NCBI GenBank assembly: GCA_951406725.2
Contig: OX597836.1
Span: 23,436,001 to 23,500,000 of the forward strand
DNA from: Octopus vulgaris
Lineage: Eukaryota
Length of the DNA stretch: 64,000 bases
Direction: 5' to 3'
The notes beneath the pieces were generated by a model. That model was not told where the DNA came from. It searched no databases and saw nothing but the letters and a program-made list of their open reading frames with translations. Of the stretch, positions 27,082 to 62,865 are shown piece by piece. Within the stretch, counting starts at the first letter, position 1. Every line of letters starts with the position of its first letter. A program made the position numbers and the translations under genes.

Positions 27082-27346
27082 GAAGAACTATCTGATCCAT
27101 CAATTAGAGTATCAGGAAGAAAGTTGAAGAAATTGGATCATGTCTATGACAACGATGGTTTCACAGAGTACTCAGAAATTCACCGGAAAGACATTGGTAG
27201 TCATCCAAAAGTGAACACTCCACCCAAAGATGAAGATATGTTAAGGAATGGCTGCTCCAGGTCAACATACGTGCCATTGCTTGTGTTATTCCTGATGTCA
27301 GTGATTGCTACGGCAGCTGCTTTAGCAGTGATTATGACCGACAAGG
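27082..27346 (+). CDS. Exon: cytoplasmic tail and type II transmembrane anchor
   Basis: ttctttttag|GAA acceptor; EELSDPSIRVSGRKLKKLDHVYDNDGF...TYVPLLVLFLMSVIATAAALAVIMTDK with a ~23-aa hydrophobic helix; G|gtaggt donor, phase 1. Confidence 0.85.
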
Positions 27347-28912
27347 GTAGGTATACGTTTTAAACATGTTTGTTGTTGTTGTTTAGATATATGAGGGGGT
27401 TCTGAACAGTTCCTGGCATTGGCTTAAAAAAAAAGGATCAGTTAATGATGATTTTACCCAACATATTCCCCTCTCAGATTCACACACTTATTGCAGTGGT
27501 CCTTCAGTTTTTCTAAAAGCCTTGTAAAAGAACTTGGAAAATTGGACCTCCAACCAGGCCTTTCATTGATACCCTTAATGTCAGGAACTTTTTAGCACCC
27601 CCTTGTAGATTAACCCTGACTGAGAAAAGCTCTGATTAATGCTTCTAGTGTGTATCTGGTATTCTTCCATTTTTAAGATGGTGGGTTGTAATTTGAAGGC
27701 AGTTTGACTGCTATGTCTAGCAGGTTGAGAAACCATGTAAAACTATCTCAACTCTTTATTGTTGCTGTTTTATCATTATGGAATATCATATGATATAGTT
27801 AGCCATTGTAAAGTTTTTAAACATCACTAGCATTATGTTCATTCTAATATAATTGTTAACTCATCATATTTGGGAGCAGAGTAACATCCCTGGTCAGGTT
27901 TTAGTCTCATTAGATCACCTTAGTTAACCAACTTTTCTAAACTTTCCTTAATTACTTTTGAGATTTGACTTAACAGCTTGTGGTATCTGTATTGTCCCAC
28001 CTCCAGTTCATGGGTTCAAATCTTATAGTCTTATAGCAGTTGACAATGATTCAGCAACATCAGTCAGGTAATCTAACAAACAAGGCTAGCAAAAAAAACA
28101 AAAAAAAAATCAGAAAAACTACTGACAAATCTCATTCAAATTGTACCATGGACTGAGATGTCTGGTGATATGGGATTCTTAAGAAGACTAGTTCACCTCA
28201 TTGAGACGGAATTCTGCAAGTGCTGTATATTATTTGCTCCTTACCAACTTGTCATATTCATTCAAACCTTCCACTAATCTACCAAACTGTATTACTACTA
28301 ATCTACCAAACTGTATCTCATCATGCACTGAGCTTATCTCTCTCTTTCTTTCTCCCCCTCCTCCTGCAGCCTAACCCCTACCTTGTCATCTCTATCTCTT
28401 GTGATCCTCCCACTTTCCTACCCTCCACTACATTTCTACCTTCCCCAATTCATGCCTCATTGGTCATTACTCTATATCCCTACCAAGCCCCTTTCACGGC
28501 TACAGGCTGCCTCCCTATCCCCTCATCTCTTACTATCTCTTTACACTCTTATAGCATCCCCCCTCACTGGTACCTTCCTCAAGCTTTGTGGGGTGGGGGC
28601 CACCTGGATACCTCTACCCTCATCTGTGTCTTCACAGCCCCTATTGATCATTTGCATCCTCCTCTACTAAATGTGAGTAACCATGCAGCTCTTCTACAAG
28701 AACCTGCTCTGCACCCCCCTCTCCTCTCATACTGTAACCCTTTATCCCATTGCATAAAACTGGCCCCCCACCACTTTCCTTGGGGTTCACTCTCTTGTAA
28801 ACTCAGTAACCTCAATAATAGTAGTGGCATGAAATATACACGGAGTCCACACTGAAAAGTGGCTGGCATTAGAAATGGCATCCAACCATAGACACCATGT
28901 GTGTGTGTGTGT

Positions 28913-28974
<62 letters not shown>

Positions 28975-29497
28975 TAAAAAGCCAAGTCAAATGTAACTTT
29001 TTAGGTTTGCTAGTTCTGTGTCAACCATGCAACACAGTGTTAAAGTAGGAGGCTATCAAAAGACAGAGAATGAGTGATAGTATGAGAATGAAAATGTACA
29101 AGAGGAGGAGGAGGTGGTTCAAAGGGTAAATTACACTGAAAGTGAGAGAATTAAAGTGCAAATGAGTTGGAGTAAGAGGTATTATATGGGTTGGAACAGT
29201 TACAAATGAAAGAGAGAGAGAGAGAGAGGAGGCCAACATAGAACTGCATTTCATAACATCCAGCCTGATGTAAAAGATATCATGAAGAGTTCAGTTCACT
29301 AACAGACCTATTATTGCTTACCTTGAAATGATTGAAGTTTACAAAGGTGGTCATCAAGGAATTATCACGTTAAACATTTTAATGCTAAAATATGTCTTTA
29401 TGATTTCATTCTGCTAAAATTGAGATTTCTCTATCTCAACATTGGCAAAAAAGAGATTCTTCACAACAGCTATTTTTGCATGTTTGCATAACATTAA

Positions 29498-29717
29498 CCC
29501 TTTCATTACCAGCCTGGCTGAAACCGGCTCTGGCTCTGAGTACAAATGTCTTGTTTTCATAAGTTTTGACTTAAAATCTTCCACCAAATCTTAGTCATAA
29601 TTTATGTTCCTAACACTAGCTTAATGATAACTAAGTTATTTTACTAAATTCTTTGTTATATTTAATGTAATTGAAAGAAATACAGAGCATCTCAAAATAA
29701 ATACAGTAACGAAAGGG
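29498..29717. mobile_element. piggyBac-type MITE (TTAA target), 220 bp
   Basis: TTAA|CCCTTTCATTAC...GTAACGAAAGGG|TTAA; inverted copy at 47588-47807. Confidence 0.85.
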
Positions 29718-30461
29718 TTAAAATGTGTATGTGTGTATATTAGTTCCTCAGGTTGATTAACCCCAGGTCAGCTCTCATGCAGTAAACCTATGACCAATCT
29801 AGCTTTTGTTATTTTTCTTTATTTCTTTTATTTGATTATTTTTCTTCTTTGCTTTCAATTTCACCTCACACCAGATACACCTGACAGGGATTTTTGATAA
29901 TGCTCTTTTTGAAGGGATTTTTGATAATGCTCTTTGTTCCTACTTTATTCCACTCCTTCTAAGCCTATCAATTAACTCTTATAAGATCTGTTCCCTATGG
30001 TACAACCATCAATATATGGCCTACATCCTTGGCAGGGCCCTTTCTATCTGTAGGGCTCTTCTTTAGAAACCGGATCACTCCACTATATTATAATTATCCA
30101 TTTTCCTTCTCTGTCATAAAAAAATATTATCCCATGCTGTTTGGAATATTCATCCTACAGAAGAATCTCTTAACTTCCATTCCTTTCTTCTTTCCTTCGA
30201 CTTGTGATTTGCTTCCAAGTTTGTCTCTTCTCACCCTAAAATCATTCATCTGTTAGAAATAGTTTAGTCCTCATCAGTTTCCACATCTGATGATTAGCCT
30301 TATTTCCTTATAAAGTTCATCGTATGCACCAGAGTGGTAGCTGACAAACTGACTGACTTACTGTAAAATGTGTGGGTTTCCCAAGCAACAACAGCAATAT
30401 AAGGCTACTTAGCAACAGAAACATGTTTTATACTTCCTTTTCTGGTCTCAACTTTATTTAT

Positions 30462-31189
30462 ACAATTGCAGCGTGGAAGGTGTTTATAAGCCATTTAAGA
30501 AACACACAAAACTGTTAGATTCACTTCAACATTTACTCTTTTACTCTTTACTCTTTTACTTGTTTCAGTCATTTGACAGCGGCCATGCTGGAGCACCGCC
30601 TTTAGTCGAGCAAATCGACCCCGGGACTTATTCTTTGTAAGCCCAGTACTTATTCTATCGGTCTCTTTTGCCGAACCACTAAGTGACGGGGACGTAAACA
30701 CACCAGCATCGGTTGTCAAGCAATGCTAGGGGGACAAACACAGACACACAAACACATACACACACATATATATATATATACATATATACGACAGGCTTCT
30801 TTCAGTTTCCGTCTACCAAATCCACTCACAAGGCATTGGTTGGCCTGGGGCTATAGCAGAAGACACTTGCCCAAGATGCCACGCAGTGGGACTGAACCCG
30901 GAACCATGTGGTTGGTAAACAAGCTACTTACCACACAGCCACTCCTGCGCCTATTTAAATTTAATTTTCAAAATATTTTTGTCGCATTGAAACCTTGACC
31001 TGTTCACTGACAAAATTCTGTGCTGCATCTTCCAAGAAAATATTTTGACAAATTAAATTTAAATGTTGAAGTGAATCTAACAGTTTTGTGTGTTTCTTAA
31101 ATGGCTTATAAACATCTTCCACGTTGCAATTGTTTTCGTTCCAGCACACGATCTCAGATCAAGTCACTCGCTATGCAAGTACATCTCTG
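30462..31189. mobile_element. Foldback MITE (Tc1/mariner-like end CAGAGATGTAC) interrupted by SINE B
   Basis: Long inverted arms (30462-30533 plus 30954-30980 versus ~31038-31133); related sequence at ~25213-25540. Confidence 0.7.
30531..30953 (-). mobile_element. SINE family B nested in the foldback MITE
   Basis: Matches family B and splits the left MITE arm at attta. Confidence 0.85.
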
Positions 31190-61220: not shown

Positions 61221-61329
61221 TATATGTATAGGGATGGGGTAAACAGCTAGCAACAATGAAAATAGAGATGTGGTAACTAATGACAACAACAATGGAAGAT
61301 CCCTAATACATTTTATTTTGTCATTGCAG

Positions 61330-61437
61330 CTTGTTCCTATAATGATTTTGCCTGCTCAAACAAGAAATGTATCATGAAAGAATGGGTTTGTGATGGAGAA
61401 TCAGATTGTAGTGATGCATCAGACGAAGCCAATTGTT
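61330..61437 (+). CDS. Exon: LDL-receptor class A repeat 2
   Basis: [36 protein letters not shown]; cattgcag| acceptor, T|gtaagt donor. Confidence 0.92.
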
Positions 61438-61825
61438 GTAAGTCTTCTTTTTATCTTCTTTTCTAATGTGATATCTTTGTTCATCGTCATCCAGTGTTTT
61501 CAATCTGGATTTTAAGGTAGGCAGGTGCAGCCTACCCCAAACTTTGAGCAGGCTGATGCCCATTCTCACTTGCTATCATGAGGCTTTTTGGGAGCTGGAT
61601 TTTCTATGGGGACCATGCCCTTGCTTACTCCCAACCTCAGTTTCTAGACTTGAGTGTTTGATATTCGTTTGAGCAATCTATTGAATGGCTGAGTTCACCT
61701 AATGAGTTATGTTTCTTTAGGGAGTAAATACCGCAAAGAATTTACATCAGTGTACAGAAACAGGTATATACCCATCCACATATTCCTCTATGTGTGCGTG
61801 TGAATGTGTGTGTGTGTGTATTTAC

Positions 61826-61893
<68 letters not shown>

Positions 61894-62754
61894 GCGTCCT
61901 CATAGCTTCCAGCTACCAAATTTTATTCCTAAGCCATTAGGCAACCTGACCCTATGATAACAGGGTGTGGCAGAGTTAGATCAAATTTGGGTTCATGTGA
62001 ACTTCTTGGAGATGAAAGGAAAATAACCAAAAATACTAATTAGAAATAGAAATTCTTGCTCTTTTAAAACCAAATCTTGAAGGAAATCAGGAAAGGAAAT
62101 GACAGGTCTGCAGGGAGATGACACTTCCCTGCTTTTCAGCTCATGGGGAAAGGGTCATATGGAATCCAACCCTAATTTTAACCTGATGGCCCTTAGCCTC
62201 TCTCCCCACACTACTTTTTGAAACCCATTTCCAGTATTGAAGAAAATGTTGATTATCTTAATGACTTCTACAAATATAAATCAAGATTTTAGAGAAGAGG
62301 TGAAAGGAAGAATTTATAAACTTCTTACTTTTTGCAAAGTTATTAACAATCTCAGAGAAGTGATTAGATCTTCAAAGCTGGTCTCAAATTCACCTTCATA
62401 AGTACTTTCCTGCTTTGATCCTCTGATGTTATCAGTAACAATGATAACTCTTGCTTTCTACATCATGTTTATCTGCATTCACTCCTTAATCTTGCTATAG
62501 TTCTTGGAAGTAATTGCTAAAATACTTACATTGATAGGTAAACTTCATCTTATAAGAAACTCTATGCTTTTTTCTTAGAGAGATAGATAGATAGATAGAG
62601 AGAGATAAAAAAAAAGGTAAATTCCGAAAATGCAAATACTGAAAAGTCCTCAAAAACTGGTTATTTGTCAGGGCAGTGTTTTTGCTTTGCTTTTTTTTTA
62701 TTATTTATTCAACTATTATTCTTATTGTTTATTATTATTGTTGTTGCTTTTCAG

Positions 62755-62865
62755 TGAAGTGCAAGCCTGACCAATTTGTATGTGATGACTTCTCCTGTAT
62801 AAACAGTAGCCTGCGATGTGATGGGGTGATTCAGTGTCCTGATGGTTCTGACGAGCAGTCGTGTG
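62755..62865 (+). CDS. Exon: LDL-receptor class A repeat 3 (gene continues beyond window)
   Basis: [38 protein letters not shown]|gtaagt donor with no further exon found before the window end. Confidence 0.92.

Follow-up and report, generated by a model that had tools for sequence, protein, structure and literature searches.

A predicted mollusc-wide transmembrane serine protease with a tandem Frizzled array in the genome of Octopus vulgaris

The stretch of Octopus vulgaris DNA analyzed here (the window; 64,000 nucleotides, contig OX597836.1 of assembly GCA_951406725.2, positions 23,436,001–23,500,000) contains a gene whose exons, at 27082–62865, encode a SEA domain, a mucin-like stalk, five tandem Frizzled (Fz) domains and LDLa repeats. 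The question raised by this locus is what kind of protein the gene specifies, and whether its architecture is new. To judge from sequence comparisons, the window probably carries the N-terminal part of a mollusc-wide predicted type II transmembrane serine protease, likely a zymogen with non-tryptic activation. The predicted proteins of this family show the order transmembrane segment (TM)-SEA-mucin-Fz (1–8 copies)-LDLa (2–4 copies)-SRCR-protease-LDLa-MAM-LDLa-MAM-LDLa-LDLa-MAM.

The gene is real, and the exon reading of the first-pass annotation, which had proposed SEA, a mucin stalk, five Fz cysteine-rich domains (CRDs) and LDLa exons, is correct. Exon reconstruction on the forward strand (27082–62865) yields 22 exons, all with AG/GT ends and compatible phases, that splice to 3205 nucleotides (nt) and translate into 1068 codons with no stop. 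The predicted product comprises the TM, SEA, mucin stalk, five Fz and three LDLa. All exon junctions from the mucin exon on are in phase 1. The ten Fz exons and the four linker exons are all open and in phase and keep every cysteine, the ten cysteines of each Fz being divided 7+3 between two exons. Pfam recognizes Fz above cut-off on all five first-half Fz exons (E 3e-12 to 9e-10) and Ldl_recept_a above cut-off on all three LDLa exons. The three SEA exons taken separately have no Pfam match at E ≤ 1; in full-length octopus proteins, Pfam SEA is above cut-off (E 5e-9 to 6e-8). The exons are arranged as follows.

22272..22304, forward strand: candidate first coding exon, outside 27082–62865, with 11 codons from an ATG and a phase-0 GT donor
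27082..27346, forward strand: cytoplasmic tail and single TM helix, predicted type II anchor (hydropathy peak 2.8)
31230–31345, 32660–32727 and 32951–33066, forward strand: SEA in three exons, with a GSVII motif (Pfam SEA in full-length proteins)
34308..34646, forward strand: mucin-like stalk of 113 residues, 64% Ser/Thr (composition)
36905..39736, forward strand: Fz1 (36905–37138, 38773–38877) and linker exon 39662–39736 (Pfam, cysteines)
41157..44756, forward strand: Fz2 (41157–41390, 43786–43890) and linker exon 44688–44756 (Pfam, cysteines)
46112..50440, forward strand: Fz3 (46112–46345, 48888–48992) and linker exon 50396–50440 (Pfam, cysteines)
51553..52727, forward strand: Fz4 (51553–51792, 52409–52510) and linker exon 52632–52727 (Pfam; 100% to the O. 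vulgaris protein)
54420..58196, forward strand: Fz5 (54420–54656, 58107–58196) (Pfam, cysteines)
58895..62865, forward strand: three LDLa exons, 58895–59005, 61330–61437 and 62755–62865 (Pfam)

The hydropathy peak, at model residues 66–84, is the single hydrophobic segment of the model, and the linker exons contain 39–60% Ser/Thr. At the N-terminus, 10 of the 11 residues of the candidate start exon are identical to those of the O. bimaculoides model, and the translation of 27082–27346 is 100% identical to residues 4–91 of the O. sinensis protein, whose 'MSK' start exon was looked for in the window and not located. A Y-x-N-x-x-F-like motif in this part of the protein is shared by 10 of the 16 mollusc tails examined; it is possibly a sorting signal, and chance could also account for the recurrence. 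The stretch from SEA to Fz1 varies among octopus species (54, 117 and 140 residues). Among five other short exons compared with Pfam at E ≤ 1, four were without a match beyond one sub-threshold hit, and none of the 63 longer open frames of the window that were scanned with Pfam, out of 132, reached cut-off. A search of the window for SRCR, protease and MAM gave no match; the gene runs on past the window.

The downstream exons are known from public protein models only, not from the window DNA. The full-length octopus models continue beyond the window with SRCR, protease and LDLa-MAM-LDLa-MAM-LDLa-LDLa-MAM, so that about 640 residues of LDLa/MAM lie C-terminal to the protease. The proposal of a protease similar to corin and the type II transmembrane serine proteases (TTSPs) is upheld by the SRCR and the intact protease in these proteins. 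They have one hydrophobic segment near the N-terminus and none beyond residue 400; the type II orientation is predicted. At the Fz4 exon, identity is 100% to O. vulgaris CAI9739445, 97% to O. sinensis LOC115223468 and 82% to O. bimaculoides. The window model as a whole shares 98.9% of its residues with O. sinensis XP_036368490 (1006 columns), and its identity to O. bimaculoides XP_052831925 is 84.3%; both proteins contain five Fz, and an assembly artefact is therefore unlikely. Assembly duplication as the source of the five Fz was ruled out, since three species have the same layout. For O. vulgaris itself, five Fz in one transcript is the prediction from the genomic exons. A further record that groups with octopus, P0022 (1807 residues, three Fz), lies entirely on a 5838-nt contig, which is compatible with one spliced transcript.

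Relatives were searched with the SRCR-protease-MAM region as the query (120 of 1083 matches were listed), and 31 proteins, 27 of them mollusc or mollusc-like, were chosen by their Pfam set from the listed matches, four other hits and cluster members. Local profiles detect the ending protease-L-MAM-L-MAM-L-L-MAM (L, LDLa) in 27/27 mollusc proteins analysed. Fz is present in 25 of these, SEA plus Fz in 21, and five or more Fz in 10, and Pfam counts agree with the local-profile Fz counts for high-copy proteins. The relatives span bivalves, gastropods and cephalopods, and the Fz-bearing members carry 1–8 Fz: one in unionids, two plus PKD in clams, 4–6 in Mytilus, five in Solemya, six in Haliotis, 7–8 in oysters and eight in Ylistrum. 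Five Fz behind a SEA domain had been taken as rare, a view that does not hold: SEA is followed by at least five Fz in seven other molluscs (Solemya 5, Mytilus californianus 5, M. coruscus 6, Haliotis 6, Saccostrea 7, Crassostrea virginica 8 and Ylistrum 8). Long Fz arrays also occur in unrelated invertebrate proteins (Penaeus 13, Paramuricea 10, and Antedon, Montipora and Pinctada 9), and a Branchiostoma protein has eight Fz with four SEA. The arrays in other molluscs and in unrelated invertebrates imply that a SEA domain followed by five Fz is neither one of a kind nor confined to octopus. Nor is the combination of SEA with Fz new: SEA-Fz-LDLa is already tabulated for Drosophila SPH198 (PMC10036332).

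In nemertean, annelid and bryozoan relatives, the LDLa-SRCR-protease-LDLa-MAM core comes with two or three proteases and at most one Fz. The automatic names of the relatives include corin/atrial natriuretic peptide (ANP)-converting enzyme, enteropeptidase, acrosin, MAM and LDL-receptor protein, and uncharacterized. The first-pass annotation would have been undone by orthologues that are both widespread and already characterised; they are indeed widespread, and no characterised member was found. The open literature searched contains no description of the family, which subscription papers or supplements could hold, and no papers in the open literature were found for six gene identifiers of the family. 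Among clam members (P0072, P0076, P0077, P0081, P0085 and P0086) a PKD domain is inserted ahead of the two Fz, preceded in five of the six by a stalk of 170–920 residues. The echinoderm proteins P0027, P0032, P0058 and P0089, with 4–5 Fz, CUB, 4–5 proteases and, in three of the four, SEA, represent a separate Fz-protease fusion.

The catalytic triad H57/D102/S195 is intact in 26/27 mollusc-clade domains. Val occupies position 216 in 26 of the 27, and position 189 is Ser or Ala in 26, with Asp in none; the residue at activation position P1 is non-basic in 25, and hydrophobic in 20. The octopus protease has A189, V216 and G226, with Met or Leu preceding IVGG. By comparison, Arg or Lys at P1 together with D189, G216 and G226 is found in all five corins, all three enteropeptidases and all three matriptases. 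A bulky residue at 216 is a criterion of elastase-like enzymes, and the beetle Corin, with R-IVGG and D/G/G, is trypsin-type (PMC11172050). The pocket of the mollusc family is thus predicted to be elastase-type, with a non-tryptic specificity. Motifs for Cys1 and Cys122, which form the tether, were found in the octopus proteins. In a protease tree of 59 of 96 domains, from which near-duplicates, extra repeats and inactive or oddly named domains were left out and in which insect Corin and SPH198 sequences are absent, the mollusc domains group in a single clade (24 rows, 99/94), whose branching largely tracks species relationships. The nemertean and annelid domains adjoin this clade (98/92), and corin is placed elsewhere.

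In a quick tree of 94 rows and 122 columns, the Fz domains fall into lineage-specific groups (cephalopod, 13 rows, 99; oyster, 22 rows, 97; Ylistrum, seven of eight, 99), which indicates that arrays expanded several times, in cephalopods, oysters and a scallop. Within the octopus array, the first exons of Fz2 and Fz3 are 1 nt apart and their second exons differ at 47 of 102 nt, the distinct second exon of Fz2 standing at the same position in three species. At residue 26 of Fz, the three copies carry Gly in O. vulgaris and O. sinensis alike, and all three carry Asp in O. bimaculoides. Near-identical intron tracts, spanning 0.4–0.9 kb at about 97% identity, surround the first exons.

36426–37159 with 40677–41411, and 36717–37575 with 45931–46782, forward strand: tracts of about 97% identity around the first exons of Fz1–3 (self-BLAST, repeat finder)

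Taken together, the 1-nt difference between first exons, the species-specific residue 26 and the intron tracts point to gene conversion within each species, by which the three octopus Fz copies appear to have been homogenised. The lineage-specific expansion suggested by the first-pass annotation applies to the Fz copy number only; the domain layout is mollusc-wide.

An alignment-based model of O. bimaculoides Fz4 was obtained with a predicted local distance difference test (pLDDT) value of 94.7. It superposes best on Frizzled CRDs (Z 13–15, root mean square deviation (rmsd) 1.9–2.6), and on the palmitoleate complex 5UWG with Z 14.8 and rmsd 2.0 over 107 aligned residues. According to this model, the family Fz domains certainly have the ten-cysteine CRD fold. 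The fold is nevertheless trimmed with respect to Frizzled and corin domains. The family profile shows a 7-residue deletion at the VLKEFGF segment of FZD4, the loop between cysteines C8 and C9 has a median of 9 residues compared with 16 in corin, and the WP motif is present in 2/107 family Fz domains compared with 14/15 corin Fz domains. The Fz4 model contains no helix of at least four residues past C8 and no fourth long helix. The counterpart of the missing C8–C9 helix-D/VLKEFGF segment reportedly forms one wall of the palmitoleate groove in the Wnt8-Fz8 structure. The ten cysteines are the only invariant positions among 25 family Fz domains, a pattern not expected of domains that bind a conserved ligand. 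The lipid groove is conserved in Frizzled receptors (bioRxiv 10.1101/2022.09.29.510206, PMC6938638), and human corin CRDs have been predicted, in silico, to bind Wnt (PMC6747125). The trimmed C8–C9 segment makes Wnt binding disfavoured in the mollusc family, and with it the multivalent Wnt or lipid receptor suggested by the first-pass annotation. A separate set of unannotated proteins (P0127–P0135 and P0139; those looked up are from shrimp, corals, a crinoid and a pearl oyster) consists almost wholly of 7–13 canonical Fz. Unlike the mollusc protease family, this set has the WP motif in most of its domains (86/130), which makes these multi-Fz proteins better candidates for multivalent Wnt binders.

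A working scheme can be proposed for the mollusc protein, in which the architecture and the key residues come from the sequences, and the activity, the activation route, the role as exosites and the location are drawn by analogy with known TTSPs and MAM proteins. The protein would stand on an epithelial surface, possibly shed at the SEA motif, and the O-glycosylated stalk and linkers would keep the enzyme at a distance from the membrane. A cut of the chymotrypsin or elastase type at Met/Leu-IVGG, made in octopus possibly by the enzyme itself, would activate the zymogen, and the Cys1-Cys122 bond would retain the activated protease on its tether. Its preferred cleavage sites would lie after hydrophobic residues of small or medium size. 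The Fz array and the LDLa repeats may be multivalent exosites, for substrate binding or for spacing, and not a Wnt-signalling unit, and the MAM/LDLa tail may serve oligomerisation or adhesion. The setting that fits best would be a mucus-covered or secretory epithelium, on which the enzyme might conceivably process a host or microbial surface protein. Hints as to location come from an 'atrial natriuretic peptide-converting enzyme' that makes up 1.21% of the shipworm crystalline-style proteome (PMC8561940), a 'corin' expressed in the light organ only of the bobtail squid (PMC10329180), two neighbouring contigs, LDLa-SRCR-S1 and MAM-S1, in the brachiopod shell matrix (PMC4453069), and a likely enteropeptidase in post-larval abalone (PMC3517415). 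No match was found in 13 of the 14 short supplement files of the shipworm paper.

Several observations weigh against the reading as a non-tryptic, tethered membrane protease with five Fz in octopus. The full-length sequences are all gene predictions, and the location hints from shipworm, squid, brachiopod and abalone are automatic names, unmatched by sequence to the family. The GS-V/I motif of SEA is found, looser variants counted, in 10 of the 21 listed mollusc SEA domains, so shedding may not be conserved. The P1 residue in bivalves and gastropods is often Tyr or Phe, a poor fit to the Val216 pocket, and self-activation may therefore not be general. An approximately unbiased (AU) test of a mollusc-plus-corin clade gave p 0.179, and the clade is not rejected. 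Finally, the O. vulgaris model in public databases, CAI9739445, counts three Fz instead of five. It runs from exon one of Fz1 straight into exon two of Fz3, and may reflect either annotation collapse across near-identical exons or real splicing.

The three-Fz model leads to the first alternative, namely that unequal crossing-over produced Fz2 and Fz3 to nearly neutral effect, that these units are skipped or spliced variably, and that the working protein has three Fz. P0022 likewise has three, older O. bimaculoides models combine Fz units in other ways, freshwater mussel members have one Fz, and the near-identical tracts around Fz1–3 favour recombination. We consider this alternative unlikely, because none of the ten Fz and four linker exons has lost its open frame, its phase or a cysteine, the Fz2-specific second exon is kept in place in three species, and arrays of at least five Fz arose in several lineages.

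A second alternative is that the protein is the mollusc orthologue of corin, a prohormone-processing enzyme, that gained SEA, additional Fz and a MAM tail. The Fz-LDLa-SRCR-protease block aligns to vertebrate corins over 100% of the query at 26–28% identity, several members bear corin or ANP-converting enzyme names in databases, and shared ancestry is not rejected by the AU test. The best protease tree nevertheless sets corin apart from the mollusc clade, corins including that of the beetle (PMC11172050) are trypsin-type and the mollusc enzymes are not, the WP motif kept in corin Fz is nearly absent here, and neither SEA nor MAM was detected in any of eight corins. Corin orthology is, on this balance, quite doubtful.

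It is more improbable still that the Fz array serves mainly to trap Wnt or lipid in multivalent fashion, with the protease cleaving what has been caught or being secondary, for the closeness of the Fz4 model to Frizzled CRDs including 5UWG and the in silico Wnt binding of human corin CRDs are countered by the deleted VLKEFGF segment, the short C8–C9 loop, the post-C8 helix absent from the model and the invariance of the cysteines alone.

If the preferred reading, a mollusc-wide non-tryptic TTSP-like protease, is carried further, a broader scenario can be put forward tentatively, although we hold it to be unlikely in full. The family would be an undescribed spiralian membrane-protease lineage, the only TTSP-like one with an elastase-type pocket and a protease between an Fz array and a MAM tail. 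Its groove-less, rapidly turning-over Fz array, caught up in an arms race with microbes or gametes, would pick mucosal substrates, for example in gut style mucus or in the crypts of the squid light organ.

The gene thus belongs to an already predicted, mollusc-wide and uncharacterised TTSP subfamily, for which a count of five Fz is ordinary. The points worth following are the internal elastase-type protease, the trimmed Fz fold and the repeated expansion of the array; the protease and the MAM tail lie past the window and were out of sight of the first-pass annotation. As the labels 'corin', 'enteropeptidase', 'acrosin' and 'MAM and LDL-receptor protein' all designate one family, predicted to be non-tryptic, functional readings based on these labels are unsafe. 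The variation of the Fz number from 1 to 8 while the catalytic half is fixed makes the family a test case for Fz roles outside Wnt signalling, which are unsettled even for corin (PMC6747125).

Elsewhere in the window, a 42-bp minisatellite of about 25 copies (96–97% match) occupies 52845–53900, in the intron between the fourth linker and Fz5, and leaves open frames of about 370 codons on both strands, of which the forward frame has no Pfam match. Broken frames without a Pfam match at 35750–36420, in the intron before Fz1, resemble the end of a Tc1/mariner-type transposase. Fragments at 48079–48414 (reverse strand) and 55615–56073, likewise without a Pfam match, resemble reverse-transcriptase tails of long interspersed nuclear elements (LINEs). 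The introns contain many recurring copies, about 200–260 nt long, that are similar to short interspersed nuclear elements (SINEs). Positions 1–27000 are rich in microsatellites, and the frames scanned gave no sign of another protein-coding gene.

TTSPs have an N-terminal anchor, a stem of SEA, LDLa, SRCR, Fz, MAM or CUB modules, a C-terminal S1A protease held by a Cys1-Cys122 tether, and activity at the cell surface. The octopus protein is alike in its N-terminal anchor, in its modular stem and, in exons beyond the window, in its S1A triad and Cys1-Cys122 tether. It differs in that the protease is internal and the activation predicted to be non-tryptic, and because the protease is not C-terminal the protein is classed as a variant that works like a TTSP. 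The Frizzled receptors and sFRPs have the ten-cysteine CRD fold in common with the mollusc family, which is without their helix-D/FGFxWP segment and without a seven-helix or netrin domain.

The closest layouts are found among the TTSPs with Fz or SEA. Vertebrate corin (TMPRSS10) and insect Corin, the latter given as TM-Fz-2LDLa-SR-protease (PMC10036332), have the same order of type II anchor, Fz, LDLa, SRCR and S1 protease. To this the mollusc family adds SEA, a mucin stalk, 1–8 tandem Fz and three MAM behind an internal protease; it has an elastase-type pocket and a non-basic activation site in place of D189/G216/G226 and activation at Arg, its Fz are shortened and lack WP, and it is not sister to corin in the best tree. 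Enteropeptidase (TMPRSS15) has TM-SEA, a Ser/Thr-rich stretch, LDLa, MAM, SRCR and protease in common with the family and gives the top feature-based ESM Atlas matches (0.85–0.88, at the level of a lead only), and the LDLa-SRCR-protease region matches 7WQX at 2e-44. Its stem, however, is CUB-MAM-CUB and its protease trypsin-type, whereas the mollusc family is without CUB or D189, places MAM after the protease and carries the Fz array. Drosophila SPH198, of the insect 'SEA' group, is described as TM-SEA-Fz-2LDLa followed by a protease-like domain (PMC10036332). Compared by description only, it has, like the octopus protein, a type II anchor with SEA directly before Fz and LDLa; it differs in its one Fz and its non-catalytic protease-like domain, and no MAM tail is listed for it. 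Finally, Nudel and the spiralian LDLa/MAM polyproteases of Lineus, Tubulanus, Owenia and Watersipora have an internal protease with further modules after it, as in the mollusc family. The nemertean and annelid domains, which are nearest in the tree, likewise have a non-basic P1 and no D189. The spiralian polyproteases contain two or three proteases and zero or one Fz, whereas a single protease and an expandable Fz array are the rule in molluscs.

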